Source: a virus
Length of the DNA stretch: 64,000 nucleotides
Virus genome (UHGV): UHGV-0311442
Reading direction: 5' to 3' (one strand)
Every line of letters begins with the position of its first letter. Positions within the stretch are counted from its first letter, which is position 1. Of this stretch, positions 14,514 through 48,038 are shown one piece after another. The translations under genes and the position numbers were made by a program. The notes under the pieces are model-generated. The model was not told where the DNA came from. It was given only the letters and a program-made list of their open reading frames with translations, and made no database searches.

Positions 14514-14548
14514 TATCTTAAATCCTCAATAGTACGAGTTAAAGAAAT

Positions 14549-14574
14549 ATCGGGGAGGTTACCCCCCCCCCGAT
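14549..14574 (-). terminator. Hairpin terminator containing a C10/G10 homopolymer
   Basis: Stem atcgggg / ccccgat with a 10-nt C run (14562-14571); T-rich on minus strand after the stem. Confidence 0.45.
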
Positions 14575-14578
14575 TTAA

Positions 14579-15109: not shown

Positions 15110-15248
15110 TGTTTTACCTCGTAAGTAGTATGGGTGGTTTGCATAGTATTGTTCGGATTATAGAAGTGTTGTTAATAGTTATGACAGACAGCAGTAAGGG
15201 TTGTCTGTAAAATTATTATTTTTTAACTTTTTATAGAAGGGTGAAAAC

Positions 15249-15728
15249 ATGCTAAAACGTTTTCTACTTGTTGTAACTGCAGCACTTTCGTTGGCAAGCT
15301 GTGCCCTACAACCCACCGCTAACGGTCAATTCTCGACTGTACCCGTAGAGCCACACGACATGGTTATTTACACCTGTATGGGTGTTGAGCAAGATTTTGC
15401 AAATTACAAACCTGTCGTCAGTTCGACTAACCTAATGTTAGGTTCAGTAACTGTAGTCGATACTGGTGCTAACTGGGTAGCCACTTGGCCAAACGGTAAG
15501 ATTGAATCACCACAACTTTATAAAGATCTATTAGGTAAAGTTAATGGGAATATCGATCCTATCACGGGACAACGTTACTACCGTGTAAATGGACTACTTT
15601 CAAAAACGCCAACATTTGCGTATTCTACTTTAGAATATAAAACGGGCGATGGTAAAGGCATTACTTTCTTCCACTGTAAGGAAGGTGTAGCTCCTGACAG
15701 TGGAACAATGCTCCATCCTGCGGAATAA
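15249..15728 (+). CDS. Predicted lipoprotein (159 aa), moron-like gene on the opposite strand
   Basis: Signal peptide MLKRFLLVVTAALSLASC with lipobox L-A-S-C; RBS gaagggtg; own terminator downstream; only plus-strand gene within the minus-strand block. Confidence 0.7.
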   Translation: MLKRFLLVVTAALSLASCALQPTANGQFSTVPVEPHDMVIYTCMGVEQDFANYKPVVSSTNLMLGSVTVVDTGANWVATWPNGKIESPQLYKDLLGKVNGNIDPITGQRYYRVNGLLSKTPTFAYSTLEYKTGDGKGITFFHCKEGVAPDSGTMLHPAE

Positions 15729-18263: not shown

Positions 18264-19112
18264 TTAATCTAAGAATCCCGGTAAGACCGAATTAGTTTTA
18301 GCTAATTCAATCTTCGACTTCGGACGATCGGTACCGTTAAAGTGGATTAACAGATTACCGGTCAGGTTAGCACACAGTCCACTGAGTGCGAGTACCAGCA
18401 CACGTGTGTACTTTGTGTTTGCGCCTTCGTAACCTGCGGTAGGCCCATCGTAGATAACCTTAGCACCGTAGAGGTTATTAGCAGCGTTCTTAGGTACGCT
18501 TACCCATATCTCATCAACGACGTTAGTCAGTTTAGTGGCTAACTCAGCCAGGTCGACGGTGTCGTTAATGGTAATCGGATCAAGGTAATCTTTTTCTGCT
18601 GTGAAATCAATTGGATAAGAATAAACCGCAGCGTTACCTTTCTTAGTGGACGGATACTCTACCAGGTTTTCTAATTGAGTAACAGGTAACAGTTTAGCCA
18701 GATCAATAGGATCGCGTAGCGTAAGTGTTACTTCGCCACACCACTCGTAGGATTTCTCGTTAGCGGTAAGCTGATGGGTTTCACCTTCAACTTTCGCATC
18801 AACGATATCCGACGGCAGAATATTTAAATCGTATTTTGCATTGATTGCATTAAGCAAATCTGCAGCGGTTACAACACCGTCGTTACCAAACACCAACTCA
18901 CCTGTTAGGTATTCGGGCAAATTACGACGATGGTAAGTCACAGTTAAAGTAGTAGACTCATCGCCTTTGAGTTTAGAAGTCAGAACCACCTGGGTATCAA
19001 CCCCAGTACCAGTAGGTTCGCCGATATCAACATCACTGAAGGTCAATGGCGGAACAATATTGTTTTCAGTGTTGATGAGTTTTAGCAGTTTCTGTTTTGA
19101 CGTAAGAGACAT
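18264..19112 (-). CDS. Paralog family A protein (282 aa, extended C-terminus)
   Basis: TYHRRNL and AADLLNAINAKYDLNILPSDIV motifs. Confidence 0.65.
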   Translation of the reverse strand: MSLTSKQKLLKLINTENNIVPPLTFSDVDIGEPTGTGVDTQVVLTSKLKGDESTTLTVTYHRRNLPEYLTGELVFGNDGVVTAADLLNAINAKYDLNILPSDIVDAKVEGETHQLTANEKSYEWCGEVTLTLRDPIDLAKLLPVTQLENLVEYPSTKKGNAAVYSYPIDFTAEKDYLDPITINDTVDLAELATKLTNVVDEIWVSVPKNAANNLYGAKVIYDGPTAGYEGANTKYTRVLVLALSGLCANLTGNLLIHFNGTDRPKSKIELAKTNSVLPGFLD

Positions 19113-19278: not shown

Positions 19279-19710
19279 TTAGCGAACGTTATGTGCTAAG
19301 TACATCAGAGAACGAGTGTCGGTGTCACGATAAGTTTGTGACATCTGGCTCAGTAACTTGTTGGCGGTAGGATCGCTATAAAGACGTTTTAACCATTCGT
19401 CAACCATTTCTGGTACAGTGTCGACCAGCAGTGGATAGTTAAGATTTTCCAGTGTGTATTCAACGAATTCGTGCATCAGATTCTGGTCACGATGCATGGT
19501 GTCACCTAACTCACCTGCGGGATACTCTTCACGAGGACGTTTACCCCAGCTGCAAATCTCCATATAGGCCGTGTTTACAATCTCTTTGTATTCCTCTAAC
19601 TTAAGTAAATCGAAGCCAGCATTCGGGCGGCAGAAACCTACTAAAACGCTCAGAGCAATAGGGTTGTTACGAACGTAGTTACGGATTTCATCATTTAATA
19701 CGAAAAACAT
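19279..19710 (-). CDS. Hypothetical protein (paralog of 20914..21342)
   Basis: Similar N-terminus and length to 20914..21342. Confidence 0.65.
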   Translation of the reverse strand: MFFVLNDEIRNYVRNNPIALSVLVGFCRPNAGFDLLKLEEYKEIVNTAYMEICSWGKRPREEYPAGELGDTMHRDQNLMHEFVEYTLENLNYPLLVDTVPEMVDEWLKRLYSDPTANKLLSQMSQTYRDTDTRSLMYLAHNVR

Positions 19711-19779
19711 TTTAATACTCCTTTAGGTAAATACAATAATGGAGGGGTGGTTTACCACCCCTTGTACGATTTTAGTTAA

Positions 19780-20892
19780 TTAACGAAATTTTTGACAAGC
19801 AGGGCAATCGCAGCCTATGCCAGATGATATTTCTCTAAAGATCGCGTCGATCGAGTGCTCATTATTCTTAAGAAAACGAGCTCCCGCCAAGTCACGCAGA
19901 TGAGTTTTTAACTTTCCGATAATACCGGGTTCATAGTTGAGTAGAATGGTAAGTGTATTGTCTGTGTAAGTCCACTGACGGACTTTCTCAGGAAACCAAC
20001 GAGCGATATCACGCATAAACTTATCGGCATCTTCTTTCCCAATAGTAGTGATTGTCAGAAGACGTAGACGATTGTCAACAATCTCATTAATGAGGTTGCT
20101 AATTTCTTCGTCAAGAGCAGCGTCCCACCATTTCCATTTAATGATGAGTTTTTCGCCCTCGAGTTTAGTCTCTACTTTGGTAGGATAGAAAGCTGTCAAG
20201 GTATCATTAATCGCTTCGGCCTCTGGGCCAGTGTAAGTAAAGGAATACGGTTCTTCGAACCATTTAATAACGTCAGGATCATTATCAACAAGCACGGTTA
20301 GCGTGCCGTCGACATAATTAGACCCACGAATTTTCTCCTTGTATTCGTGAACAGCACTACGCATGAGTTCATCAGCGGTATCTTTTCCGATACCATGAAT
20401 CGAAATAAGTCGAACGGCATCGTTATCGATCAGCTCAGCGATAGAACTAATTTCTTCCATGAGATTACGATCGTCTTTCTTCAATCGAACGACGATCTTA
20501 TCGTTATCCGAATAAATGCCTAAATCGTCGGGATAGAGGGTCTCTAACGCTTCTTTAATTTCCTTAATCTTCTTACCTTCGTACCAGAGGACGTGTGGTT
20601 CGTCTTTCTGCTGTTCTTCTACTTTCGGTTGTTCAGTCTCGGTCGTTTCCACCCGAGTGTTCGTGGTACCTTCTGCTGGGTTGAGTAACTCACCGATTTC
20701 TTTCGCGATAGTGTCGCAAAGATAATCGTTGCAGTGAGTCCAGTAGAATACGATGCTTTCATCGTTGACCTGCTCTACACGGAAATGTACACCTTTATCC
20801 AGGAATATGCGATAAAGTTGATCAAGTAACTGTGCTTCAGGAACCGGACGGATTTCAGTTTTAACGAGCGGGGTAATTTCGATATTAAACAT
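19780..20892 (-). CDS. Hypothetical protein with internal tandem domain duplication
   Basis: Two ~110-aa repeats (..RLISIHGIGKDTADELMRSAVHEYKEKIR.. and ..RLLTITTIGKEDADKFMRDIARWFPEKVR..). Confidence 0.7.
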   Translation of the reverse strand: MFNIEITPLVKTEIRPVPEAQLLDQLYRIFLDKGVHFRVEQVNDESIVFYWTHCNDYLCDTIAKEIGELLNPAEGTTNTRVETTETEQPKVEEQQKDEPHVLWYEGKKIKEIKEALETLYPDDLGIYSDNDKIVVRLKKDDRNLMEEISSIAELIDNDAVRLISIHGIGKDTADELMRSAVHEYKEKIRGSNYVDGTLTVLVDNDPDVIKWFEEPYSFTYTGPEAEAINDTLTAFYPTKVETKLEGEKLIIKWKWWDAALDEEISNLINEIVDNRLRLLTITTIGKEDADKFMRDIARWFPEKVRQWTYTDNTLTILLNYEPGIIGKLKTHLRDLAGARFLKNNEHSIDAIFREISSGIGCDCPACQKFR

Positions 20893-20913
20893 GTCATTTT
20901 TCCTTTTGGTAAA

Positions 20914-21342
20914 TTAGCTGTAATTGTGCTTAAAGAACTCTAAAGCACGCTGGTCGTTTGTAATCGCCGTTGTGGACATTCGTTTTAACGCCTGGCGGCA
21001 GTAAGGGTCGTTCAGAATACGTTGCTGCCAAGCGTTGACTATTTCCGTCACTGTTTCCCCTTCTACAGCAGTGTTAAGTTTATCGAGGCAGTGCCGTCCT
21101 AACAGAAACGCAACTGCGTAATCGGTAAACATCTCGGTGCCGAAATCCCCGTCGGGATAATCGCAACGTTTACGTACCGACGTTGCGGTAATGGAGTTAT
21201 AAGCGGTTTTTATTATCTCGTGGAACTGTTCCACCGTTAAGATGTTAACGTCAGTACCTGAAAGCGTAAGCGATGCCAGTACAGGAATACTGGCTGGGTA
21301 CTGACGGATGTAATCACGCAAATCTGAATTGAGCGTTTTCAT
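20914..21342 (-). CDS. Hypothetical protein (paralog of 19279..19710)
   Basis: ORF. Confidence 0.65.
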   Translation of the reverse strand: MKTLNSDLRDYIRQYPASIPVLASLTLSGTDVNILTVEQFHEIIKTAYNSITATSVRKRCDYPDGDFGTEMFTDYAVAFLLGRHCLDKLNTAVEGETVTEIVNAWQQRILNDPYCRQALKRMSTTAITNDQRALEFFKHNYS

Positions 21343-22090
21343 TCATGAACCCTTTTGTTTTTATCCAATATAAGCAATTTGCACCAACCTGAACTGGCTC
21401 GATCCTATCAAGTTCTTCCATCAGAGCCAGATAAGTTTGCCAAACGGTTTGACGTTCGAAGAAAAATGATGTTGTGCCATTAGACCTAAGACATGCACGT
21501 ACTAAGTGCTCGGTTTGTGAAAACTGTATATTAACGTTGTTCAGGACACGTTGTATAGTATCAGAGTCGTAATGCGCGAAACGATCTTTGTGTACCAGAA
21601 CCATCTCTATAGGCGAGGAATCGTCATTGACTGAAAAAGGTTCGTCAATGCGAATAAGGTTATTCCGGTGAGGTACCCCATCGTAACCGAGCGTATAGAC
21701 ATCCATACCTTCCCCCGGGTTACAGTCGAAATACTCCAGAATTTTATCAGCGTTTTTCTCCGCCGAACGTTTAAAGTAAACAATATAAACGGTATGACTA
21801 ATCTTCTCAACTTCGTATACTTTTTCGGAGAACGATCTGAAAATTGCCATGACGTTTAATCTTCCTTTGTCTTTAGCAACGTAACTTGCAACTAAACACG
21901 TTGCTTCACCACGAAGAACATCGTCAATGAACTCTTTTGCTCGTTTTAATTCATCCTCGTTAAAACCACCGATAGTGAGCTCATTCCCATAAATCTGATA
22001 AGCAAGATGTGGAGTAACGTTTTTCAGGAAACTCGTAATGATGTGCGTGTATGCCCAAAGACTACTATTCTTAAACTCGATAGTTTTCAT
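21314..22090 (-). CDS. Hypothetical protein
   Basis: ORF in same-strand array. Confidence 0.6.
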   Translation of the reverse strand: MKTIEFKNSSLWAYTHIITSFLKNVTPHLAYQIYGNELTIGGFNEDELKRAKEFIDDVLRGEATCLVASYVAKDKGRLNVMAIFRSFSEKVYEVEKISHTVYIVYFKRSAEKNADKILEYFDCNPGEGMDVYTLGYDGVPHRNNLIRIDEPFSVNDDSSPIEMVLVHKDRFAHYDSDTIQRVLNNVNIQFSQTEHLVRACLRSNGTTSFFFERQTVWQTYLALMEELDRIEPVQVGANCLYWIKTKGFMNENAQFRFA

Positions 22091-22134
22091 TTTATTTTCC
22101 TTTTGGTTTTACAAGCTGAAACGTTAATTTACGC

Positions 22135-22629
22135 TTAGAGGTGTTTTCCGATAACTTCCGAAACTAATTCGTAAAGGTCATCGTCACTGCACACGTCTAC
22201 GCTAATTCCGATATCGATACTACGACTGCGGAACCCTACTTTGAGCGTTTTACCGAATTCGGTTTGTAGGGCTTTATAGAGTCTATTCTTATCTTCTTTA
22301 AAGAGAGGAACAGGTAGTCTAACAGTGAACTTGTAATGTTCTTTCGAAACAAGTTCGTTAGAATAATTAAAACGTTTAGCCACACGGGTTCCGACAATCT
22401 GTGTTATCAGCTTAAACATTTCTTCGTCACTATACGGAGTTGCGCCATAACCGATATCAATAGAATTTCTACGGAATCCTGCGCAGAATAATGCACCGAA
22501 TTGCTCACGGAATTCTTTGTATAGAACATCTTTTTCTACATCCCACAGCCCGTAACCCAAGTCAACAGTGAATTTGTATTTTTCTTTGTCAACTAATTCG
22601 TTAGTGTAATCAAGTCTAGTGAAGTTCAT
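22135..22629 (-). CDS. Hypothetical protein made of two tandem ~80-aa repeats
   Basis: Repeat NELVxKExYKFTVxL...FRxRSIDIG present twice; RBS ggag. Confidence 0.7.
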   Translation of the reverse strand: MNFTRLDYTNELVDKEKYKFTVDLGYGLWDVEKDVLYKEFREQFGALFCAGFRRNSIDIGYGATPYSDEEMFKLITQIVGTRVAKRFNYSNELVSKEHYKFTVRLPVPLFKEDKNRLYKALQTEFGKTLKVGFRSRSIDIGISVDVCSDDDLYELVSEVIGKHL

Positions 22630-22659
22630 GGTATATTCTCCTAAAATGGTTTTCGTTAA

Positions 22660-22713
22660 GTGAGAGCTTTTGTACTCTCACCTAAGTAATATATATCTGA
22701 AATTATTTTTATT
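22660..22713 (-). promoter_or_regulatory. Conserved promoter-like motif plus 5'-UTR hairpin (copy 1 of 4)
   Basis: Plus-strand gtgagag..ctctcac hairpin followed by CTAAGTAATATATATCTGAAATTATTTTT; near-identical motif at 26566-26623, 46526-46579 and 41221-41263. Confidence 0.45.
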
Positions 22714-22993
22714 AAAAACCCGCAATAAAACTGCCTAGCGAGACACGTTGCAAGTATTTTGGTTTGCGTGCCAGGTAACAGTTCTTAGGATTACCTATTG
22801 CCATCTGTGCAACTGCACGTTCTAAACGCGGCGCTTCTAAGATGGCACGATAGTTCCCTTCGTAGTGCATCAACCACGCACACTCTTCAACAAAACGTTT
22901 TGCTTCTCGGTATTCTAACGTACGAATTAACTTCTTGCCCCGGTATTGTTTTACATCACCGTTTTGACAAAATACAATAGTTTCACGCTTCAT
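22712..22993 (-). CDS. Hypothetical protein
   Basis: ORF. Confidence 0.55.
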   Translation of the reverse strand: MKRETIVFCQNGDVKQYRGKKLIRTLEYREAKRFVEECAWLMHYEGNYRAILEAPRLERAVAQMAIGNPKNCYLARKPKYLQRVSLGSFIAGF

Positions 22994-23330
22994 TGATAAT
23001 CTCCCAGTTCGCTCTTATAATCTCACGTTTACAGTCTTCAATATCTTTACGGTAAAACGTCGTTTTTTCTTTTAATAGCTTTAATATCTCCTCTTTAGGC
23101 AATTTCCCCTCACAACCCAATTCAGCAATAGCACAAACGAGAACAGTCAAATATTCTACTGAACCGGTTTTCGCACGATATTCAGAGATAAGTTCTTGTT
23201 GTGTTTCAACGGTTTCTTCTAATAACTTGATATATTCTTCGTGCTTTGCGCACGCTTTGCATTTTCCGAAACCTAGCAATTTAAAAACCACTATTACCTC
23301 CTTTGGCAATCCAGGTCGCCACACGCACAT
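22983..23330 (-). CDS. Hypothetical protein
   Basis: ORF. Confidence 0.55.
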   Translation of the reverse strand: MCVWRPGLPKEVIVVFKLLGFGKCKACAKHEEYIKLLEETVETQQELISEYRAKTGSVEYLTVLVCAIAELGCEGKLPKEEILKLLKEKTTFYRKDIEDCKREIIRANWEIINEA

Positions 23331-23592
23331 GAGCGTCTTGAAAAGACGATATGAGCAAGATCACACCGCCTAACGTACGAGGGACGCGTAAGGCTTCGTA
23401 ACGACGGCAGTAAGAACGTACGCAATACTCGGAACCTAAGATAACGATTTCGCAGTATTCTGAACGAATAGGTAGTAGTTGAGAAACGAGTTTATCGCAC
23501 GTTTCTTTATTGTCTTCTAACAACCCACCACGGAGAATATAGTTGACAATGTTCTCAGGTACCGATGTGTTTGTGATTTTACTTTCCATCAT
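23281..23592 (-). CDS. Hypothetical protein
   Basis: ORF. Confidence 0.5.
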   Translation of the reverse strand: MMESKITNTSVPENIVNYILRGGLLEDNKETCDKLVSQLLPIRSEYCEIVILGSEYCVRSYCRRYEALRVPRTLGGVILLISSFQDAHVRVATWIAKGGNSGF

Positions 23593-23978
23593 TAAACTCC
23601 TATAGTGATCTCCGTAATGTGCATTCTTCGCATCTCACGGGTCATTCTGTCTATTGCTCGTTGACACTCGAATAAATTGTCGTAGTATTTCTGGGCGGTA
23701 ACGTTGAATATAATCCGACCTTCTTTCAATTGTTTAGCAACGACTTTTGTAGTTTCCGATTCAAACAGCAAACCACCTTCCCTGCCGATCTTAACTAAAA
23801 CGTCACGAATGATAACGTTTATAAGCTCACCATTTGGGGAAACCACGATTTCCGTATACCAATCGCCCTCGCTAACGATACGTTGTACCCTTTCACCGCA
23901 TAGCCAGTTTTTAACTTTCCCGTTAACATACAGTTGGGCTTTCAGTAACAAACGTCTTTTAATGTAAGATAAACGCAT
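23592..23978 (-). CDS. Hypothetical protein (tandem paralog pair, member 1)
   Basis: Shares SGDWYTEI...GREGG...NGTAQ motifs with 23982..24356. Confidence 0.65.
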   Translation of the reverse strand: MRLSYIKRRLLLKAQLYVNGKVKNWLCGERVQRIVSEGDWYTEIVVSPNGELINVIIRDVLVKIGREGGLLFESETTKVVAKQLKEGRIIFNVTAQKYYDNLFECQRAIDRMTREMRRMHITEITIGV

Positions 23979-23981
23979 CTT

Positions 23982-24356
23982 TTAAACCTCCACCGTAGTT
24001 CGTTCAGTTTCTTTAATAAACTTACTAAGCGATTCATTTAAACGTTTTACTCTTTCACCAAACTTAACTACTGTATCGTAAAGGCATTGTGCTGTACCGT
24101 TAAATAAAATCGGACCGTTTTTTAACTCCAGGGCAGAAACTTGATAGTATTCAGAGTTGAAGATTGCTCCTCCCTCGCGTCCTATTCTAACAACTACGTT
24201 ACGAACTTGTATGTTTTGTAACCCACCGTTTGCTAACGTAATAATCTCTGTATACCAGTCACCCGATTTAACTACCGTTGTGACATTCTTGCCGCAAGCC
24301 CAGGTTTTAAACGAAGTGTCTAGCCAACATCTGAATTTGTATAACAGTAATGACAT
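23982..24356 (-). CDS. Hypothetical protein (tandem paralog pair, member 2)
   Basis: Paralog of 23592..23978. Confidence 0.65.
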   Translation of the reverse strand: MSLLLYKFRCWLDTSFKTWACGKNVTTVVKSGDWYTEIITLANGGLQNIQVRNVVVRIGREGGAIFNSEYYQVSALELKNGPILFNGTAQCLYDTVVKFGERVKRLNESLSKFIKETERTTVEV

Positions 24357-24398
24357 ATCGTTACTCCTCCCTCTCAGGATTTCCTGAGAGGGGTTATA

Positions 24399-24680
24399 TC
24401 ACAGTTTCTCTTCTATTGTATCTAATCGAACTAACGCATCGTGACTGACTTTCCGTGCGTGTCCGATTGTCCCACCGAGGGCTTTTGTTGTTGGGTCTAA
24501 GGTATTCAGACGGTGATACTGATAATCGATATCACGTATACAACGCGCCTGTTGTTTTACCATCCGAATTAATAGTCGTTTGGTTTGACGATTGTTACTA
24601 AGCTCCTGCCGTAATCGCGTGTTTTCTTTATAAAGCTCCTGTTGACGTGAGTTAATTAAACCCAACAACCAATCTAACAT
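24399..24680 (-). CDS. Hypothetical coiled-coil protein
   Basis: ORF. Confidence 0.55.
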   Translation of the reverse strand: MLDWLLGLINSRQQELYKENTRLRQELSNNRQTKRLLIRMVKQQARCIRDIDYQYHRLNTLDPTTKALGGTIGHARKVSHDALVRLDTIEEKL

Positions 24681-24682
24681 TT

Positions 24683-25198
24683 TTACCCCCGGTGCAAGAA
24701 AATACGGTTAGTGTTTTCGAATTTCGGTTCTGTCCACTCTAGTTCCCAGTAAGCCTGGTTAATATCGCGAGACGTGAGTTTCAAATTCGAAACACCGGGG
24801 ATATCGATCTGCTGCAGTAAATTAATAATCGTCACCAGCTCTTTACGAGGACGGTTCCAGATAACTTCAAGATACTCTTTCAGACGCTCCGGATAAGCGA
24901 CAGGTCGAATATAAACTAGTCCAGCGGGATACTCAATTGCTGAGGGTGTTCTAGGCACTAACCAAACCCAGTCTTTTAATAACGGTCCTGGGTGATAGTT
25001 AGAGAGTTGAGTAAGCGCGTTTGCGACCGAACAACAACGGAAGTAGGTGATATCCCAATCGTGTTCATGGCAATTTCGCGCAACGATAACTTTTAAACGG
25101 TCAATAGGTTTACCGTCGATGGTCGTAACACCAGGTTGATTCGCCAGAATCTGACGTTCACGTTTAGTGTAAAGATTCATGTTAATATTTACTGACAT
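24683..25198 (-). CDS. Hypothetical protein
   Basis: ORF. Confidence 0.6.
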   Translation of the reverse strand: MSVNINMNLYTKRERQILANQPGVTTIDGKPIDRLKVIVARNCHEHDWDITYFRCCSVANALTQLSNYHPGPLLKDWVWLVPRTPSAIEYPAGLVYIRPVAYPERLKEYLEVIWNRPRKELVTIINLLQQIDIPGVSNLKLTSRDINQAYWELEWTEPKFENTNRIFLHRG

Positions 25199-25244
25199 TT
25201 AATGCTCCTTTAGGTAAATGGTGGGGTAATTAAGCTACGGTTCC

Positions 25245-25688
25245 TTAAATCATGCCTGGGAATTCGAAATCGATTTTATCTAAAAGTTTGTAGTCGTCTT
25301 TTAGCTGAAGCATTAGCGTATTCTTAAACAGTTCAAGCGAACCGATAAAGTAAGCCGTATAGCAGCTACCACGAACAGAAGAGGAAAGACCCAAGTCTCT
25401 TAAACACTGTTTCAAGATTTCATGTTCTTCAGCGGTACCGAAAAGTTGGAAATTGATAACGGTAATCTGTTTATTAATGATTGCCGATAACCATTCTTTA
25501 ATTCTTCTCGTGGTTATTCTTTCTTTGAAATCACTAGCTTCTGGCAGCCAGGTAATGTGAACAAACGGTGCATCGTAATCCACGAGAACTTTCTGCTGCC
25601 AACGTACTTGCATCAAACCACGAATACGGTTTGCTAACGTTTCAGAATCACAAAGTAGCATAATGCCGTTGGTAGTATTTGGTTTCAT
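25245..25688 (-). CDS. Hypothetical protein
   Basis: ORF. Confidence 0.6.
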   Translation of the reverse strand: MKPNTTNGIMLLCDSETLANRIRGLMQVRWQQKVLVDYDAPFVHITWLPEASDFKERITTRRIKEWLSAIINKQITVINFQLFGTAEEHEILKQCLRDLGLSSSVRGSCYTAYFIGSLELFKNTLMLQLKDDYKLLDKIDFEFPGMI

Positions 25689-26536
25689 AATTGCCCTTCC
25701 TTCTTAATGTAATCTTCAACCAACTTATCAAACACGATTTTTATCTTCTCGCGTTCTTCTTCGCCCAATTCACCGGAACAGGTTAGTCCGTTTATCTTTC
25801 CGTACCGTAATTCCAACACATACTTCAACCGATGACGTAAGGCTTGTTCAAAATGCGTTGGAATATAAATTGGTTCGAAGTTGTGCAATAAAATAAAATC
25901 GTCTTCGGTGTGTTTAGGAGGTTCGAATTTTACTCTATCTAAGATAGTAAGCCAGCGTTGTCTGTCGACTAGCCGATCGTCCCAATAAACAGGTTTTGTC
26001 TTAGAGGGGGTAAGTGTATTGTAGTCACTGGAATCGGAGATACGGAAATTTGCTGTGACGTAAGTCTTCGAGAGTAACGAGAGAAGACAAATCGTGCCTT
26101 CTTTAGGGTAGCTTAAAAGCTCTCCGAGTACGTCTTTAGCTTTCTTGAAGTAGTCTCTAATATAGTCTTCAGCAATTGGTTGAATTTCTACTTCCATACA
26201 GCTAATTTGGGGCCCGTCTATCCGTAAAGGAATTTTTAGTTCAGCAATATACTGCCTATCAGATGTATAAGCTCGCGTAATAATAGGGTACGTAACAGGC
26301 TTGGCCAAATGACGATATTCATCATTTCTAATGACTGAGTAACGTCCAAACCCGCCTTTATTCGATTTTGAAAAAGCGTAAAGGTCTTTTAGATACTCTA
26401 GATACTGGTCATCGGTCATTTCGTCGGTATTAAATTCACGAATGTAAAGTCGTTCAACAAATCCCTTTGTTTGTTCGTAGTAATAACTGGGGTCCCTATT
26501 TGCTAGAATGTGCGGGAGATAATACGGGTGTGACAT
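25685..26536 (-). CDS. Hypothetical protein
   Basis: ORF with RBS aaaggagg; preceded by the conserved promoter-like motif. Confidence 0.65.
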   Translation of the reverse strand: MSHPYYLPHILANRDPSYYYEQTKGFVERLYIREFNTDEMTDDQYLEYLKDLYAFSKSNKGGFGRYSVIRNDEYRHLAKPVTYPIITRAYTSDRQYIAELKIPLRIDGPQISCMEVEIQPIAEDYIRDYFKKAKDVLGELLSYPKEGTICLLSLLSKTYVTANFRISDSSDYNTLTPSKTKPVYWDDRLVDRQRWLTILDRVKFEPPKHTEDDFILLHNFEPIYIPTHFEQALRHRLKYVLELRYGKINGLTCSGELGEEEREKIKIVFDKLVEDYIKKEGQL

Positions 26537-26565
26537 CTAATCCTCCTTTCGGCTATAACTAATGG

Positions 26566-26623
26566 AGTGAACGTAAATTTCACTCTCCCCTAGGTAATAT
26601 ATATCTGAGAAAAAATATAAAAA
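26566..26623 (-). promoter_or_regulatory. Conserved promoter-like motif plus 5'-UTR hairpin (copy 2)
   Basis: Hairpin gagtgaa..ttcactc then TAGGTAATATATATCTGAGAAAAAATATAAAAA. Confidence 0.45.
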
Positions 26624-26652
26624 CCGTAGGATGGACTTAGTCCATCCTACGG
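26624..26652 (-). terminator. Rho-independent terminator of the tailspike gene
   Basis: Perfect stem ccgtaggatggac / gtccatcctacgg; T-run follows on minus strand. Confidence 0.6.
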
Positions 26653-26658
26653 TTTAAA

Positions 26659-28785
26659 TTAAATAACTACCCAGCTTTTACCATCGGAGCCAACTTGCAT
26701 TAGCGTAATACTTTCAGTGGTCTCAATGGGTTTGGCAAGACCTTCCGTCCCACCCTTTGGAGTGATGAGAACGTTCGAATTTTGCGGTTTAACGGTGATC
26801 GAACCAGCCTTATTTGCCACGATCTGTATATTTCTACCCACGCTATATTCTAGATCAGGAATAGTAAGTTGGCCGCCACGGTTGGTGGCTGGGAAATACA
26901 CATAAGACGATACATCTTCCTCAGATAACACTATACTACCAGAATCACGATTGACCGAGATCTCAAACTTAGAAATATCGATATCGTAGGCAGTAACTTT
27001 CGTAATATCTGTCAGAACCAATTCGTTCAAATTGGTCTTAGCTGTACTGTTCGCCAGATCAAATGGAGTGCCATTCTTGCCGTCAAGCACAGGCGTGACT
27101 TTGATTTTATTGTCACCCGGATAAATGATTTCAAACGTATGCCAGTTATTATCGTACGCACCAAAAGTTCCTAATTGCACATTCTGCTTTTTATGATGCA
27201 TCAGATAAAGATTCGTACCGTCGGTCTGTAAGAAAAAAGACATTAAGTACGGGTTCGTATCAGCCACACCAGCGTCAGCAAGTGTAGTACCAGAAGGTAG
27301 GTCGGACGCGGAAATACGCCAATAAAGTCCTAATCCGAAACGATCTGCTGCTAAATCACCTTTTAGTCTAAAAGTAACGGTCAGACGTCCACCGTAACGT
27401 ATCATGTCCGCAGCAGATGTCATTGACTTAGTTACATTCCAAGGTTTCATCGTTACAGCCTTTCTTAATTCGACGAAATGCCCGTTTCCATCCTCAGAAT
27501 CTTGCACGGTTACGTTACAATCAACGATATTGTTCCAACCCTGCCCTTTCAGGGAACCATCTCCACGACGTCCGTTATAACCCACAGACTCTACTAATGG
27601 GGTATAGCTTCTTACCACATTCATATTGTCTTTGAGCTCTTTAGTGTCGTTCTTCGTCAGGAGCATTGCACCATTCGCTGTTCTTGATAATATCTCAGCA
27701 GCTATTCTCTCTGAGATAATACCGCGTCGTGCCCAAGAACTGAAATGGCTATTCCTTGTTTCAGACGTCCAGTTTTTATTACTACGGGTGGCAGCACCGT
27801 AGTAGGCAGCACCAGCGATATCAGGATCGTCAGTGGGATCATTAGTCGGTACACGTTGGCCATTATCGTCGTACATGAATGGAACAAAAAAGATATTTTT
27901 TTGTTCATTGTTACGATAATTACCGTATATGGTTTCATATTGAACAGGATATTTTTCCTTCCAATAGTAGGTAGTGTCCCCGCAGATCCATGGTACTTCG
28001 GCGGTGTCGTACTCGGGCATCTGAGAGAGATGGTCAGAGAGATCAGTTCGGAAACGCTCTACCATTGCCATAAATAACGCTGGTTGTTGTGCGTAACCTA
28101 CTTTAGTCAGATCATACTCCCCCTGCATCCACACTACAGCCAAGAGTTTATTTTTAGGATTAACGTCCAGAGCTTTTTTGGTCCGGCTAACTAAATCTTT
28201 ATAAAGAGGTTTTTCCACCCCCCATACCGATGACGTCGCAGAGGCTCCTGTGGCTTCATCGAAGGTACCTTCTGCACCACCCGTGAAAGCAGAACCGCCG
28301 CGTGCGCAGGGTACTAGTAAGATACCAGCGTTGCTAGGAATATACGGGAGAAGACGCTTCGCGATGTGTAGACCTTGACCCACACATCCGTATTCACCTT
28401 TGTCCAAATTGGCTTTGGGGTGCGAGAATACGGACATATCTTGCACGTCGTGCAGACAGTGATCCGCTGGAATGACGTCGTTATACTTACAATCAGCACC
28501 ATTAGGCGTTACCTTCGCACGGCGCGCCATTTGTTTAATCCGCGGATCGGGAGCGTCCAACGTCGCTGGTAAAGGCAATCCTTCACCATAACTCATCGCA
28601 TTAGATTGCCCGGCTATAGGGATCACGAAGTAATAATCCGGTTCCGTCACCCCCCCCCCTTGAAGTTCTGCAATATCAATTTTATATTCTTTTTCTTCCT
28701 TAGAAAGGAGAACTACCGCACCTTTGAGATCGCCAGAGAAATTGTCGAGTTCATGGATACGTTTCTTTCCAATTGGTTGAACCAT
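26659..28785 (-). CDS. Tail fibre / tailspike with N-terminal SASA/SGNH-type carbohydrate O-acetylesterase domain
   Basis: IAGQSNAMSYG (GQSN block of sialate-O-acetylesterase-like esterases) near the N-terminus; ~700 aa; RBS ggagg before ATG 28785 (ORF-track TTG at 28797); G10 tract in codons for QGGGV. Confidence 0.7.
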   Translation of the reverse strand: MVQPIGKKRIHELDNFSGDLKGAVVLLSKEEKEYKIDIAELQGGGVTEPDYYFVIPIAGQSNAMSYGEGLPLPATLDAPDPRIKQMARRAKVTPNGADCKYNDVIPADHCLHDVQDMSVFSHPKANLDKGEYGCVGQGLHIAKRLLPYIPSNAGILLVPCARGGSAFTGGAEGTFDEATGASATSSVWGVEKPLYKDLVSRTKKALDVNPKNKLLAVVWMQGEYDLTKVGYAQQPALFMAMVERFRTDLSDHLSQMPEYDTAEVPWICGDTTYYWKEKYPVQYETIYGNYRNNEQKNIFFVPFMYDDNGQRVPTNDPTDDPDIAGAAYYGAATRSNKNWTSETRNSHFSSWARRGIISERIAAEILSRTANGAMLLTKNDTKELKDNMNVVRSYTPLVESVGYNGRRGDGSLKGQGWNNIVDCNVTVQDSEDGNGHFVELRKAVTMKPWNVTKSMTSAADMIRYGGRLTVTFRLKGDLAADRFGLGLYWRISASDLPSGTTLADAGVADTNPYLMSFFLQTDGTNLYLMHHKKQNVQLGTFGAYDNNWHTFEIIYPGDNKIKVTPVLDGKNGTPFDLANSTAKTNLNELVLTDITKVTAYDIDISKFEISVNRDSGSIVLSEEDVSSYVYFPATNRGGQLTIPDLEYSVGRNIQIVANKAGSITVKPQNSNVLITPKGGTEGLAKPIETTESITLMQVGSDGKSWVVI

Positions 28786-28820
28786 TGTAACCTCCAATTT
28801 TTAAACCAATACTCTTCCGG

Positions 28821-29069
28821 TTAGCGCGACATGCCGTTCTGTGATAAGGCAGTACTAACGATAAGTTTAACCGGGGTTTGTTCTTCCGTAATAGGGATTT
28901 CATCGAGATTGTTGATATCAATAGTAACATCATGGACTTTAGGCATTGTTACCAAGATAGTCAACATTACCACCGATGCTTTTGTGGAAGTATCCGCAAC
29001 GTAATATTTAACGTCCAGTAATTCGTTACTTTCAGATAAGTAGAGTATTTGCGGATAGATTGTTATCAA
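28821..29069 (-). CDS. Possible small ORF (82 aa) in the 320-nt gap between fibre genes
   Basis: Only ORF filling the gap; TTG start without a clear RBS. Confidence 0.25.
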   Translation of the reverse strand: MITIYPQILYLSESNELLDVKYYVADTSTKASVVMLTILVTMPKVHDVTIDINNLDEIPITEEQTPVKLIVSTALSQNGMSR

Positions 29070-29106
29070 TGTAAAAAAAATACCAACGCCATTTAAGTTT
29101 TAGCCA

Positions 29107-29622
29107 TTAATGATCTCCGAAGGTTAATGCACAATTATCTGCGGTAACGATTAAATCGTCGTCTTTTGTTACTGCGGCTTCTTCACTGTTACCGAAAACC
29201 AGAACAGAGAATTGACCTTTATAACCTAATGAATTAGGTGATACCTGTAACGTTACCGCGTCTTTTCCTACAGTGAAAGAATCATCTGTTAGATCTTCAG
29301 CTTGTAAGTTACTGCCACAAGCTGCGTTAATCGCTTCGATTAAATCGTGTGTGGTAAACCCTTCCCCGGCTACTTTTACCAGAATAGGTTGCTGGTTTAA
29401 CCACCGCTCTGCGGTTAAACGGTTGTAATAGATCTGCAACGTTCTGTTTCCAGGACGCTTAATCTTTACAACGGCAGTGGTATCACGATTCATTTCTTCA
29501 GTAGGATTTACGTTGCTGAACTCAACCTCGTTTTCTTGCAGATCGAGCTGAAGGTCGTAGTTGATCAGCGATATAACCATGTTAGTTGAAGTTAATGATA
29601 AATCTGGTGTGAATTGCCCCAT
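29107..29622 (-). CDS. Paralog family A protein (~171 aa)
   Basis: PDLSLTS...LINYD...IYYNRL...HDLIEAINAACGSNLQAEDL motifs; RBS ggagg before ATG 29622. Confidence 0.65.
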   Translation of the reverse strand: MGQFTPDLSLTSTNMVISLINYDLQLDLQENEVEFSNVNPTEEMNRDTTAVVKIKRPGNRTLQIYYNRLTAERWLNQQPILVKVAGEGFTTHDLIEAINAACGSNLQAEDLTDDSFTVGKDAVTLQVSPNSLGYKGQFSVLVFGNSEEAAVTKDDDLIVTADNCALTFGDH

Positions 29623-29720
29623 AAAGTTTACCTCCAACGGTTAGGGGAGTCATAAAATGTTGGCTAAAACATTTCACCCCTCCCCCGATTATGTTTTCAG
29701 GCACTATGACTTGAAAATAA

Positions 29721-30224
29721 TTAACTAATTCTCAAATCACGTAGTGCGCCTGTTGACTTCATCACGTTTTGGAACGCAGCGCTGATGTTATTAGTCCAGT
29801 AGTAATGCTGTCCGTTAATAACCTGCTGATAGGCCAGCGCGCAGGTGTTGCCACCTAAATTTACGGTAATGTTAGAGGCTCTGCCTCCTTGTAAGTAAAC
29901 CGCTAAAGTAGGCTTTGCGTTGGTAAATATCGTCGTTAGCATTAACTCGATACCTATTAAAGTCCCCACCCCGCAGTTACCCGCGTTTTGAATGGTCCCC
30001 TGATTTTTCTGGTTTAACGGCCAGCTTGGTCCTACTGCGCCCCATTTATTACCTAAAGAATCGCTATATGCAGCGGTTGCAATTTTACAGCCCATAGATC
30101 GTCCCACCATTTGACTCATCATAAAAGGTCTACCCAATCCTAATTTACTACCCGCAGCGCTCATCCATTGTTGGCCAGTTTCATTCTTAGCTGAAGATCC
30201 GTCCCATCCTGACGCTACCCCCAT
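29721..30224 (-). CDS. Tail-fibre tip / receptor-binding protein sharing its N-terminal module with 30241..31032
   Basis: N-terminus GWDGSSAKNETGQQWMSAAGSKLGLGRPFMMSQMVGRS parallels the N-terminus of the Gly-rich protein. Confidence 0.6.
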   Translation of the reverse strand: MGVASGWDGSSAKNETGQQWMSAAGSKLGLGRPFMMSQMVGRSMGCKIATAAYSDSLGNKWGAVGPSWPLNQKNQGTIQNAGNCGVGTLIGIELMLTTIFTNAKPTLAVYLQGGRASNITVNLGGNTCALAYQQVINGQHYYWTNNISAAFQNVMKSTGALRDLRIS

Positions 30225-31078: not shown

Positions 31079-32170
31079 TTATAACTTGTTCTCGATTATC
31101 TCCGCCAACTCCTTTATTGCCTCAATAAGTAGAGCTATTTGGGCAGAGTTAGAGACCGTTAAAACGTCCTCACCATTAGCGTCTTTATAAGTAGAAACTG
31201 CTTCAGGTAACACTTTTTGTAAGGTCTGTGCTACAACGCCAGCCTCACGATGAACATTAGTGGATTTAAAGTTCTCCTTTTTGTCGTATATTAAACCTGA
31301 CAATTCCTTTACCTTCTCCAATGCATTAGTTATTGGAGAGAAATTACTTTTCAGCCGGGCGTCAGATCGTATATAAACGTCGTTAAAGTTACCGTTCCCA
31401 CCACAAACCCAAGTACCGTCGTTTTGCAAATAAGCATTGGCATCGGTGCCATTATCAGTACGTGAGTTGTTTATCATGTAAAAGCCGAATTGATAGTTAC
31501 CTAAACCACCAACAAAAAATTTCCTATCAGCATGGTCTTGTCTTAACAATGCCTGAGCAGAACTGGTTCCTACCGGATTAAGACCAAAAATAACGTTATG
31601 GTCTCTCATGCTAATCCAAGAACCTGAGTTGCTGTTAATAGAATATCTATTTGCATAAACCCAAGTATTGGTTCTTATATCTCCGGTAACGTTGAGAGGT
31701 TTATTGCTTTGAACAGCCCCACTCGTAAAGCGTAAAACATGAGCATTATTGGCGTAAACATCTAGAACGCCATCCCCGTTCTGCTTAAAGCCGGTGTCAT
31801 TATCCCCTAAAACTATGGAGTTCCCACCTAAAGCATTGGCGGTTCCAATACCCAATGCTCCATTCAATTGACCGCCAGATAATGGCAACGCCCCAACGTC
31901 GGCAGCAGTTGGCTTGTTTCTCGTATTGTACACGCGACGCCAACCTGGTGAGTAAGTATCGCCGTTAAATACGTAGATAAACTCCGCATTAGTGAGTGCG
32001 CCGGAGACGCTCGTCGTTGTGGCGGTCGTTATACGGATCGTGTAGTTGTTTGTGCTATTGCCATTACTAATCACTTCTATAACGGCCCCAGCTAACGGAA
32101 TAGCCCCCACAACCCGTCTCGCTGTGTGGTATGTGCGCACTAGCGGCATAAGCCCATGCACAGCGAGCAA
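31079..32170 (-). CDS. Tail-fibre distal segment with C-terminal intramolecular-chaperone (peptidase S74-like) domain
   Basis: C-terminus SDARLKSNFSPITNALEKVKELSGLIYDKKE...VSNSAQIALLIEAIKELAEI matches the auto-cleaving chaperone domain of phage fibres and endosialidases; no RBS-supported start; overlaps the upstream fibre ORF by ~100 nt. Confidence 0.65.
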   Translation of the reverse strand: MLAVHGLMPLVRTYHTARRVVGAIPLAGAVIEVISNGNSTNNYTIRITTATTTSVSGALTNAEFIYVFNGDTYSPGWRRVYNTRNKPTAADVGALPLSGGQLNGALGIGTANALGGNSIVLGDNDTGFKQNGDGVLDVYANNAHVLRFTSGAVQSNKPLNVTGDIRTNTWVYANRYSINSNSGSWISMRDHNVIFGLNPVGTSSAQALLRQDHADRKFFVGGLGNYQFGFYMINNSRTDNGTDANAYLQNDGTWVCGGNGNFNDVYIRSDARLKSNFSPITNALEKVKELSGLIYDKKENFKSTNVHREAGVVAQTLQKVLPEAVSTYKDANGEDVLTVSNSAQIALLIEAIKELAEIIENKL

Positions 32171-40928: not shown

Positions 40929-41198
40929 TTAAATCTTACGGCTGCTACCGTAGCAGCCACAACCTGCTGTCGTTTTCGCAGCACTGACCGGTGCTAACGC
41001 AGCCATCGTACCATCGGCCTTAACAATGTGTAAGTTATTTACGCGAGTCAGACCTTTAAAGGTAATCTTCACACCCTTGCGTAAACTCTTCACATCAAAA
41101 CCGTCGAGTTTGAGTGTTTTAACCTTTTCAGGTTTACCTTCTTCGTAATAGGAAAGAACATTACCTGCACGTTTTTCAACAATATAAATCTTACCCAT
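40929..41198 (-). CDS. Hypothetical protein (89 aa)
   Basis: ORF preceded by the promoter-like motif. Confidence 0.55.
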   Translation of the reverse strand: MGKIYIVEKRAGNVLSYYEEGKPEKVKTLKLDGFDVKSLRKGVKITFKGLTRVNNLHIVKADGTMAALAPVSAAKTTAGCGCYGSSRKI

Positions 41199-41220: not shown

Positions 41221-41263
41221 AGTGAGAATTCTCACATAGATGAAATATATCTTAAATTTTTTA
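41221..41263 (-). promoter_or_regulatory. Conserved promoter-like motif plus hairpin (copy 4, diverged)
   Basis: gtgagaattctcac palindrome then ATAGATGAAATATATCTTAAATTTTTT. Confidence 0.35.
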
Positions 41264-41271
41264 GACAATTA

Positions 41272-46129: not shown

Positions 46130-46489
46130 TTAGTGCGTTGCGGTGTTAGTGATAAAACGCACATTCTTCGTGGTGCGTTTAATGGACGTGTTTGCAACGT
46201 AGTCCAACGCTGATTCTACGTGAACGGTTACTGAGCAACGACCCTTAACGGAATTAAAACTAATCTGGTATTTCAGACGAATCGCATCAGCAACTTTCAT
46301 CATAATCGGCAAGCTTAAACGTTCTGAGTGATCGTTCTTAATAGACGAGATAACAGGTTGTGAAACTTTCGCAAGCTGGGCAAGTTCACGCTGGGTAATG
46401 TCTTTTGTGGTCAAGTGACGAATTACGTAAGACAAGTGAAGACCGAATTTACGTTTTGCCAGAACGATGGAATTGTGATTGTAAGCCAT
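46130..46489 (-). CDS. Putative HTH DNA-binding protein
   Basis: ITQRELAQLAKVSQPVISSIKN resembles an XRE-type helix-turn-helix; preceded by the promoter-like motif. Confidence 0.5.
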   Translation of the reverse strand: MAYNHNSIVLAKRKFGLHLSYVIRHLTTKDITQRELAQLAKVSQPVISSIKNDHSERLSLPIMMKVADAIRLKYQISFNSVKGRCSVTVHVESALDYVANTSIKRTTKNVRFITNTATH

Positions 46490-46525
46490 TGTAAATACTC
46501 CTTTAGGTTAACAAGTCGGTGTAAA

Positions 46526-46579
46526 GAGTTAGTTGTAACTCTCATCTAAGTAAAATATATCTGAGAAAAAATAAAATAT
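46526..46579 (-). promoter_or_regulatory. Conserved promoter-like motif plus 5'-UTR hairpin (copy 3)
   Basis: Hairpin gagtta..taactc then TCTAAGTAAAATATATCTGAGAAAAAATAAAATAT. Confidence 0.45.
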
Positions 46580-46603
46580 AGGTACCACCCAACGGTGGTA
46601 CCT
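46580..46603 (-). terminator. Rho-independent terminator
   Basis: aggtaccaccc / gggtggtacct hairpin with T-run on minus strand. Confidence 0.55.
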
Positions 46604-46609
46604 AAGCGG

Positions 46610-47910: not shown

Positions 47911-48038
47911 AATTTATCTCTCTTTAAATTGGTGAGTTACCGACTCACTACGGTTGTCACATTGATAATATCAATCTGTAATAAAATTTAGGGTAAAAAA
48001 AAAGAAACCCGCCCCTACCGTTAAGTAGGGGTAAGGTT

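Follow-up and report, generated by a model that had tools for sequence, protein, structure and literature searches.

The 64,000-nt stretch of viral DNA analysed here (the window) carries five intergenic copies of a probable promoter element on its minus strand. In our estimate the probability is roughly 80% that these are early promoters of the phiKZ kind, read by a multisubunit RNA polymerase carried in the virion and injected into the host. Three copies are nearly identical and one is diverged, each lying 5' of a gene and running in the same direction as that gene. A fifth and weaker copy (site 5), absent from an earlier note on this DNA, is the fifth-best matrix match in the window. All five point at the next gene, and the minus strand is the coding strand in the part of the window that holds them. 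The features are listed below, with +1 denoting the predicted first transcribed base and the supporting evidence in brackets.

22680..22714, minus strand: site 1 promoter, AT-rich upstream part followed by CAGATATATATTACTTAG-GT (exact match, matrix, covariance model, copies in four relatives)
22679, minus strand: site 1 predicted +1, a G
22660..22681, minus strand: site 1 stem-loop, GTGAGAG-N8-CTCTCAC (RNA fold; loop varies and arms are kept in orthologues)
22662-22679, minus strand: site 1 helix counted from the predicted +1, GAGAGU/GCUCUC
22135..22629, minus strand: site 1 first gene, 164 aa, no family match (ORF list; no PHROG match)
26588..26622, minus strand: site 2 promoter, CAGATATATATTACCTAG-GG (exact match, matrix, covariance model)
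26587, minus strand: site 2 predicted +1, a G
26564..26587, minus strand: site 2 stem-loop, GAGUGAA-N7-UUCACUC, at the predicted 5' terminus (fold; compensatory change in the relative L037)
26621..26655, minus strand: site 2 upstream intrinsic terminator, 16-bp stem and T-run (terminator scan; compensatory stem substitutions in relatives)
25685..26536, minus strand: site 2 first gene, 283 aa, function unknown
46544..46578, minus strand: site 3 promoter, CAGATATATTTTACTTAG-AT (exact match, matrix, covariance model, kept before orthologous HTH genes)
46543, minus strand: site 3 predicted +1, a G
46524..46543, minus strand: site 3 stem-loop, GAGAGUUA-CAAC-UAACUCUU, flush with the predicted 5' end (fold; loop changes in the relative L011)
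46579..46604, minus strand: site 3 upstream intrinsic terminator of 11 bp, after the thymidylate kinase gene (terminator scan)
46130..46489, minus strand: site 3 first gene, HTH DNA-binding protein, 119 aa (phrog_7126, E 1e-31)
41234..41268 (core 41236-41253), minus strand: site 4, diverged promoter-like copy, AAGATATATTTCATCTAT-GT (24.6 bits; covariance model E=0.021)
41222..41235, minus strand: site 4 perfect 14-bp palindrome GTGAGAATTCTCAC, weak RNA hairpin (sequence; fold z -0.47)
40929..41198, minus strand: site 4 first gene, 89 aa, phrog_12339
47953..47993, minus strand: site 5, variant copy CAGATTGATATTATCAATGTGAC (6.0 bits; near-identical SPN3US variant)
48012-48031, minus strand: site 5 upstream terminator (terminator scan)
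47296-47910, minus strand: site 5 downstream gene

The repetition of the motif is real and lies well above chance. The pattern CTARGTAAWATATATCTGAR given in the earlier note has exact matches at 22682-22701, 26590-26609 and 46546-46565, that is, three in 64 kb against 0.01 expected (0/100 shuffles). A position matrix built from related sites scores 63.9 bits at site 1, 56.4 at site 2, 52.3 at site 3, 24.6 at site 4 and 6.0 at site 5, against a best score of 0.8 bits in shuffled sequence. The motif is therefore present at all four places where it had been reported, including the diverged fourth. Among the sites, only 2 and 3 have the run of six A of the reported consensus. A covariance model of promoter and stem gives E values of 2.4e-10 (site 1), 6e-8 (site 2), 2e-16 (site 3) and 0.021 (site 4). 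With E=2.3 site 5 is not significant by itself in this model, and it draws its support from context: it follows a terminator, precedes a gene and is nearly identical to a variant found in phage SPN3US.

On the minus strand site 1 is laid out as TAATAAAAATAATTT-CAGATATATATTACTTAG-GTGAGAGTACAAAAGCTCTCAC, followed by about 25 nt, AGGAG and ATG. Sites 2 and 3 share this layout, and site 4 has the diverged form AAGATATATTTCATCTAT-GTGAGAATTCTCAC. Sites 4 and 5 may, given their divergence, be weak, inactive or differently timed. The function of site 4 is less certain than that of the other sites and remains uncertain, because upstream of its orthologous gene in one relative (L004) we find only a degenerate version with different spacing. 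In another relative (L011) site 4 is 100% conserved although the flanking coding DNA differs.

Judged by its proteins and by DNA similarity, the phage behind the window is a phiKZ-like jumbo phage of the SPN3US/Erskinevirus branch, kin of Erwinia phages phiEaH2 and Asesino and of Salmonella phage SPN3US. A 731-aa protein encoded in the window shares 81-83% identity with virion proteins of phiEaH2, Stratton and Asesino and 76% with the SPN3US counterpart; a phiKZ-type internal head protein domain is encoded as well. An uncultured viral contig of 225 kb shows 89-97% DNA identity to the window. No RNA polymerase gene lies within the 64-kb window, and over its whole length there were no matches to Rfam covariance models at gathering score and no tRNAs in a tRNA scan. 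The 225-kb contig and two further close relatives do encode a homologue (76-77% identical) of SPN3US gp241, the beta-N subunit of the virion RNA polymerase, which has been detected in SPN3US heads (PMC5105663). Besides gp241, SPN3US has several more annotated RNA polymerase beta and beta' genes. Early genes of such phages are transcribed by the injected virion polymerase and later genes by a second, newly made polymerase (PMC7598289). As of PMC5312081 the virion enzyme had not been purified from any phiKZ-like phage, so that in the model phages, too, its recognition of the motif is an indirect conclusion.

On the transcribed strand the element reads gATTAAAAAtaaTTTCAGATATATATTACYTAGGT-G(+1)AGAG and extends from about -35 to +6. 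Relative to the predicted start its blocks are gATTAAAAA (-35 to -27), TTTCAGA (-23 to -17) and TATATTAC (-14 to -7), then YTAGGT and G(+1)AGAG. Sites 1 and 2 have TATATTAC-6N-G, and site 3 has TATTTTAC. We place the transcript start at the G 7 nt after TTAC because the mapped starts of phiKZ and AR9 lie 6 nt downstream of the conserved element; both this start and the early timing are inferred by comparison. The AR9 early consensus, derived from mapped 5' ends, is AAATATATATTAT-6N-G+1, and in phiKZ and phiR1-37 transcription likewise begins 6 nt downstream of the element (PMC5312081). Seven copies of the octamer TATATTAC lie within the first 50 kb of phiKZ, all on the coding strand, in intergenic DNA and just upstream of genes, in the context aaacag-TATATTAC-taacttG. 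One of these copies precedes PHIKZ054, a gene with a published primary start site that carries the early motif (PMC8244752). The early promoters of phiKZ depend on the virion RNA polymerase (Ceyssens 2014 as summarised in PMC7598289, PMC8244752). Early promoters of phiKZ and 201phi2-1 are conserved at -10, -20 and -30 (PMC11512511), and the blocks of the window element match this pattern, given the predicted +1. More generally, reviews state that in every jumbo phage that encodes RNA polymerases the early operons are preceded by an AT-rich motif with its centre near -10, and that such elements can be predicted in each of these phages (PMC7598289).

Motifs of the later classes look different. 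The phiKZ middle motif is a weak AT-rich/TACT signal at about -22 to -24 and the phiKZ late motif is TATG (PMC7598289, PMC8244752), and the AR9 late motif is AACA-6N-TA/G (PMC5312081); compared with these three, the window element is a different and much longer motif. According to reviews, middle and late promoters are not predictable from sequence (PMC7598289). A full-text literature search for TATATTAC returned unrelated papers only. The AR9 genome paper (Lavysh 2016) is said to list early motifs for all phiKZ-related phages, and the motif has likely been described already for the SPN3US/Erskinevirus clade.

Relatives of the phage share the element widely: roughly 15 jumbo-phage genomes hold about 50 copies, which lie between genes and run in the direction of the gene that follows. 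Searching IMG/VR for exact matches to the 18-mer CAGATATATWTTACYTAG gave 52 loci, almost all of them on contigs between 107 and 246 kb long, at 3-6 copies per genome. A few matches on small non-jumbo contigs (L006, L014, L015, L028, L040) were without flanking conservation and were excluded as chance. Across 50 sites, conservation reaches beyond the 18 bases searched, with gATTAAAAAtaaTTT upstream and GTGAGAgT downstream. A co-oriented Shine-Dalgarno sequence, start codon and ORF follow at 45 of the 48 distinct sites, and the median 5' UTR over the 48 is 52 nt. When positions 20-30 kb of the window were compared by megablast with 50,697 phage records, the sole match was 36-56 nt at site 1 (89-100% identity), found in Asesino, phiEaH2, Stratton, SPN3US and related Salmonella phages. 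The matched places share a layout of (often) a terminator with T-run, an AT-rich stretch, TTTCAGATATATATTACYTAGGTGAKAG, a stem-loop, an RBS and a start codon. A mobile repeat or MITE was considered as well and ruled out, as the shared sequence is only about 40 nt long and the flanks are unrelated between paralogous sites.

Position is conserved along with sequence. Sites 1, 2 and 3 stand before the same genes and at the same distance in close relatives. At site 1 the orthologous copies in four relatives lie 69-71 nt before the same gene, whose orthologues are 90-96% identical. At site 3 the motif is kept 73-75 nt before the HTH orthologues of SPN3US (39% protein identity) and of a 246-kb contig (33%). 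The earlier note had named absence from orthologous intergenic regions as a finding that would count against its proposal; the motif is retained there, even before such distant orthologues.

The genes served fit an early class. The first genes of the units encode small proteins of unknown function and the HTH protein, with no virion protein among them. Behind the HTH gene of site 3 follow genes for a GNAT acetyltransferase (PF00583) and a DNA methyltransferase (phrog_56). The whole block is syntenic with SPN3US gp099-gp105, the HTH unit corresponding to gp101-gp105. Virion-protein-like genes do occur farther down some units (for example 18264-19112, phrog_1037). A terminator hairpin with T-run had been reported before each copy. 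The terminator scan agrees for sites 2 and 3, two of the four reported copies, and gives no terminator for sites 1 and 4; there the upstream ORF stops within or beside the AT-rich part. The scan was also positive at site 5 (48031-48012), and across relatives 19 of the 48 family sites have a terminator upstream.

The short palindrome reported after each copy is indeed there: it follows the motif directly, at the predicted start and some 25-30 nt before the RBS. To assess its stability as RNA, we folded 34 nt from the predicted +1 and compared the result with 200 shuffles. Site 1 folds with -8.3 kcal/mol (z -5.48; none of the 200 shuffles was as stable), site 2 with -7.6 kcal/mol (z -3.41) and site 3 with -6.5 kcal/mol (z -2.30); the folds at sites 4 and 5 are weak (z -0.47 at site 4). 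At sites 1 and 3 the first predicted transcribed base is already paired. The 48 distinct sites of the family average a z of -2.4, and the helix begins between -2 and +4 relative to the predicted +1 in 41 of them.

The arms themselves differ from site to site (GAGAGUUA/UAACUCU, GAGAUUAC/GUAAUCUC, GAGCAUUGA/UCAAUGCU, GAGUGAA/UUCACUC, GAUAGA/UCUAUC) and the loop length ranges from about 3 to 11 nt or more. Pairing is better between the 5' and 3' arms of one site than between a 5' arm and the 3' arms of other sites (0/5000 permutations), and positions +4 to +8 show three to five Watson-Crick pair types each. A MAFFT alignment of 43 sites is ungapped and cannot place the 3' arms over loops of variable length, and was therefore replaced by a covariance-model alignment. 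The model, which includes promoter and stem, has 58 matches among the motif loci of relatives and none in the phiKZ segment. In its alignment 87.2% of cells pair (69.6% in shuffles), seven of eight pairs show change on both sides, 63 cells are compensatory (22 in shuffles) and the covariation score is 0.39 (0.13 in shuffles), each with 0/500 shuffles and with slid controls near zero; as the alignment was fitted to the structure by the model, these values lean towards structure. Orthologue comparisons are independent of the model alignment. At sites 1 and 3 they show changes confined to the loop, with three of four loop bases replaced and both arms kept in the site 3 orthologue of L011. The site 2 orthologue of L037 carries a compensatory swap of U-A to C-G in the stem. 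Because arm sequence and spacing vary while compensatory changes preserve pairing, the palindrome can be regarded, on this pattern of substitution, as an RNA stem-loop and not as a fixed protein-binding DNA palindrome. A comparable fold is missing (z above -1.5) from five of seven early 5' ends of phiKZ, so the hairpin appears to be a trait of the SPN3US/Erskinevirus branch.

A matrix scan of the complete SPN3US genome finds six strong copies, before gp055, gp066, gp101, gp135, gp180 and gp249, and, beyond these, about ten weaker variants whose core is AGATAGATATTATCT. Every copy, strong or variant, lies between genes and runs in the direction of the gene it precedes. Variants stand upstream of gp022-gp023 (annotated RNA polymerase beta) and of gp076-gp077, where gp077 is the beta-N subunit of the non-virion RNA polymerase (PMC5105663). 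Site 5 of the window has almost the same sequence as the SPN3US variant at 15613, which stands before the RNA-polymerase operon gp022-gp023, and the SPN3US gap orthologous to site 5 (before gp099) holds a variant copy too. Variants before polymerase genes are to be expected if production of the second polymerase depends on transcription of its genes by the virion enzyme. This link is supportive and not diagnostic, because it is incomplete in 201phi2-1, where some non-virion RNA polymerase genes have no early promoter nearby (PMC11512511).

Other readings of the promoter part have to be weighed. If the copies were host sigma-70 promoters, bacterial RNA polymerase would use them right after injection, with TATATT as the -10 element and the AT-rich stretch as an UP-like region. 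TATATT agrees with TATAAT at five of six positions, site 1 offers TTAATA-16-TATATT (9/12), the phiEaH2 and Asesino copies read TTGATT-17-TATATT, and the related jumbo phages RSL2 and RSF1 are rifampicin-sensitive (PMC7598289). However, the scan shows no -35-like hexamer at sites 2, 3 and 4, sigma-70 sites are not enriched over shuffles in the regions scanned, and the invariant CAG, TTAC, TAG and GTGAGA fall outside sigma-70 requirements. The same core is moreover used in phiKZ, whose development is wholly rifampicin-resistant (PMC7598289). The earlier observation that a canonical -35 element is missing is thus upheld, the weak match at site 1 being the only one among the four reported sites, and we give host promoters very little credence. 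A phage-specific promoter with a 5'-UTR stem-loop was suggested at the same time, and this part is supported by our results; its proposed middle or late timing is not. Such timing, with the non-virion phage polymerase reading the promoters, would agree with a phage-specific motif that has no -35 element and with the virion-protein-like genes farther along some units. Against it, the phiKZ middle, phiKZ late and AR9 late motifs are unrelated to the element, whose core equals the early element of phiKZ and AR9, and the first genes are non-structural. In addition, SPN3US variants precede the genes of the non-virion polymerase, and an enzyme cannot be needed for its own synthesis. We therefore regard middle or late promoters as distinctly unlikely.

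Two further alternatives concern the palindrome. It could be the dimer site of an operator bound by a phage regulator such as the HTH protein of the site 3 unit, either instead of a promoter or besides one. The HTH gene is first in one unit, site 4 has its perfect 14-bp palindrome, and the core of the SPN3US variant class is palindromic (TAGATA-T-TATCTA). Yet the main motif is asymmetric and always co-oriented with the gene, 45 of 48 copies pointing towards an RBS and start codon, whereas the palindrome arms differ between sites at a spacing of 0 to 11 nt, with pairing kept by compensatory changes. The regulatory-protein binding site offered earlier is for these reasons not favoured, and we consider it highly unlikely. 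The stem-loop might also act otherwise than as an mRNA stabiliser, either as a promoter-proximal attenuator or, as in phage N4, as a DNA hairpin that takes part in recognition of the promoter. In many copies the stem is followed by 3-4 U, the site 2 hairpin was flagged as terminator-like by the scan, and premature termination in 5' UTRs has been reported for phiKZ and 201phi2-1 (PMC11512511 for 201phi2-1); but the stems are short and AU-rich (about -7 kcal/mol), and U-runs are missing at window sites 1 and 2. As to the hairpin promoters, which the N4 virion RNA polymerase does use (PMC4496689), those of N4 lie upstream of the start, whereas the helix of the window family lies downstream of the predicted start and has loops that vary from about 3 to 11 nt or more. 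The N4 enzyme is also a single-subunit polymerase, unrelated to the multisubunit enzymes of jumbo phages. An attenuator or N4-like role is in our judgement unlikely.

For early promoters of the virion polymerase, the following course of events can be proposed. The polymerase, packaged and injected with the DNA, would recognise the minus-strand element and start transcription at the G 7 nt after TTAC. Each transcript would then open with a stem-loop of 6-8 bp, whose first paired base lies at the 5' end or within a few nt of it, followed by a 5' UTR (median about 50 nt), a strong RBS and several small early genes in one polycistronic block. In enterobacteria, a helix that begins right at the 5' end is a classical brake on 5'-end-dependent mRNA decay, and Emory, Bouvet and Belasco reportedly described such 5'-terminal stabiliser stem-loops of the ompA type in E. 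coli mRNAs in 1992. By this analogy the stem-loop of the window family probably serves in mRNA stabilisation and would shield the 5' end from 5'-end-dependent decay (RppH/RNase E).

A wider interpretation is tentative, and we hold it to be possible though rather doubtful as a whole. In the SPN3US/Erskinevirus branch of the nucleus-forming jumbo phages, the stem-loop may be a functional module peculiar to this lineage, evolving together with the virion-polymerase promoter, and could mark or protect the first phage mRNAs. For example, it could make these mRNAs resistant to host 5'-end-dependent decay, help the injected polymerase to escape from the promoter, or tag mRNAs made in the early infection vesicle for handling. 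The AGATAGATATTATCT variants might then form a second tier through which early genes, those of the second polymerase included, are expressed in graded amounts or at different times.

The analysis annotates five transcription-unit starts in an uncultured jumbo phage and places roughly 30 minus-strand genes, among them those for the HTH regulator, the GNAT acetyltransferase and the DNA methyltransferase, in a probable early (host-takeover) class. The promoter kind itself is already known from phiKZ, 201phi2-1, AR9 and phiR1-37. The covarying 5'-terminal stem-loop and the weaker variant class, on the other hand, may be the parts that have so far gone undescribed, and both could be used in reporter design and phage engineering for the jumbo-phage systems of Salmonella, Erwinia and E. 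coli. That the core is common to enterobacterial phiKZ-like phages, phiKZ and AR9 speaks for a virion RNA polymerase whose specificity is very old and has been conserved.

Among known systems, the early promoters of phiKZ resemble the window element in the identical octamer TATATTAC, followed by 6 nt and a G, in the AT/T-rich upstream part and in the multiple intergenic, co-oriented copies before small early genes. The flanks differ (CAGA...YTAGGTGAGAG in the window family, aaacag...taacttG in phiKZ), and the covariance model of the window family accordingly has no match in 50 kb of phiKZ. The number of strong copies per genome also differs, with about 6 in SPN3US against 28-32 in phiKZ, SPN3US adding its weaker variant class.

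The AR9 element matches at 10 of 13 conserved bases with the same 6-nt spacing to a G start, and AR9 has two multisubunit RNA polymerases, as the phage of the window probably does. AR9 differs in its uracil-containing DNA, in its Gram-positive host and in an element that ends in TTAT where that of the window ends in TTAC; no 5' hairpin was found for AR9 in the search of PMC5312081. The ompA-type stabiliser is comparable in its short helix at or within a few nt of the 5' end (here a predicted one), with no long single-stranded leader. Unlike the ompA type, the 5' arm in the window family is also constrained as initially transcribed sequence (GAGAG).

A further likeness is with SPN3US (Seoulvirus) and with phiEaH2, Asesino and Stratton (Erskinevirus). 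For the 20-30 kb of the window that were searched, these genomes are distinct from it and have no megablast-level DNA in common with it except the motif. They nevertheless carry an essentially identical motif with the same layout of stem-loop and RBS, in part at shared orthologous positions such as that before gp101.

A fifth copy of the repeated minus-strand element read as a putative early promoter of the virion RNA polymerase, absent from the list in the earlier note, is present in the window as a variant. It is preceded by a terminator and followed by a gene (47296-47910), and its hairpin GTGAGTCGGTAACTCAC lies about 10 nt farther downstream.

47953-47993, minus strand: variant fifth motif copy, CAGATTGATATTATCAATGTGAC

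When window positions 20000-30000 are compared with 50,697 deposited phage genomes, megablast-level similarity is seen at the promoter only. The source phage itself is known solely from uncultured IMG/VR contigs, with 89-97% identity to IMGVR_UViG_3300029126_000001. Compared with close relatives, the minus-strand terminator stems at 26621-26655 and 46579-46604 show compensatory substitutions or loop inversion, whereas the adjoining promoters are invariant. At the diverged copy, site 4, we find a perfect palindrome with an EcoRI site inside, whose loop is too short for a good RNA hairpin.

41222-41235: 14-bp palindrome at site 4, GTGAGAATTCTCAC

An extended ribosome-binding module, ACCTAAAGGAG(T)ATT, recurs in the window and in the 5' UTRs of many relatives. 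There, AATCGACTATTAAT often precedes the module, which means that conservation in these 5' UTRs extends to their 3' half as well. The count of CTAAAGGAG is 3 (against 0.37 expected).

19718-19726, 25205-25213 and 46498-46506, minus strand: ribosome-binding module

The unit downstream of site 1 contains a paralogous gene pair, and amid the putative early units lies a host-recognition cluster encoding a 712-aa protein (SASA esterase and DUF6645 domains), a Peptidase_S74 chaperone-domain protein and a 1190-aa tail fibre. The 202-nt gap before the tail fibre gene is without the motif, and the cluster presumably has later promoters of its own. Nor was the early motif found in a divergent intergenic gap, where the palindrome ACAGACA-N11-TGTCTGT occurs together with a stretch rich in A and T. 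An intergenic hairpin farther to the left may be a terminator, and its run of ten G may be prone to slippage.

19279-19710 and 20914-21342, minus strand: paralogous genes, each phrog_8484
26659-28797, 31079-32170 and 32067-35639, minus strand: host-recognition cluster
15110-15248: divergent gap flanking the lone plus-strand gene 15249-15728
14514-14578, minus strand: hairpin with ten-G run, aatcggggggggggtaacctccccgat

The related Salmonella jumbo phage SPN3US carries another, weaker motif class, whose core, AGATAGATATTATCT, is palindromic. Every copy is located in intergenic DNA in the same orientation as the downstream gene, and some precede operons with RNA polymerase subunit genes (gp023, annotated as beta, and gp077, non-virion beta-N). 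This class may represent a promoter tier that is graded or timed differently.

L057 (SPN3US sequence) 15613: weaker-class site
L058 (SPN3US sequence) 22485 and 22683 (SPN3US 72485 and 72683): weaker-class sites
SPN3US, elsewhere: approximately seven further sites
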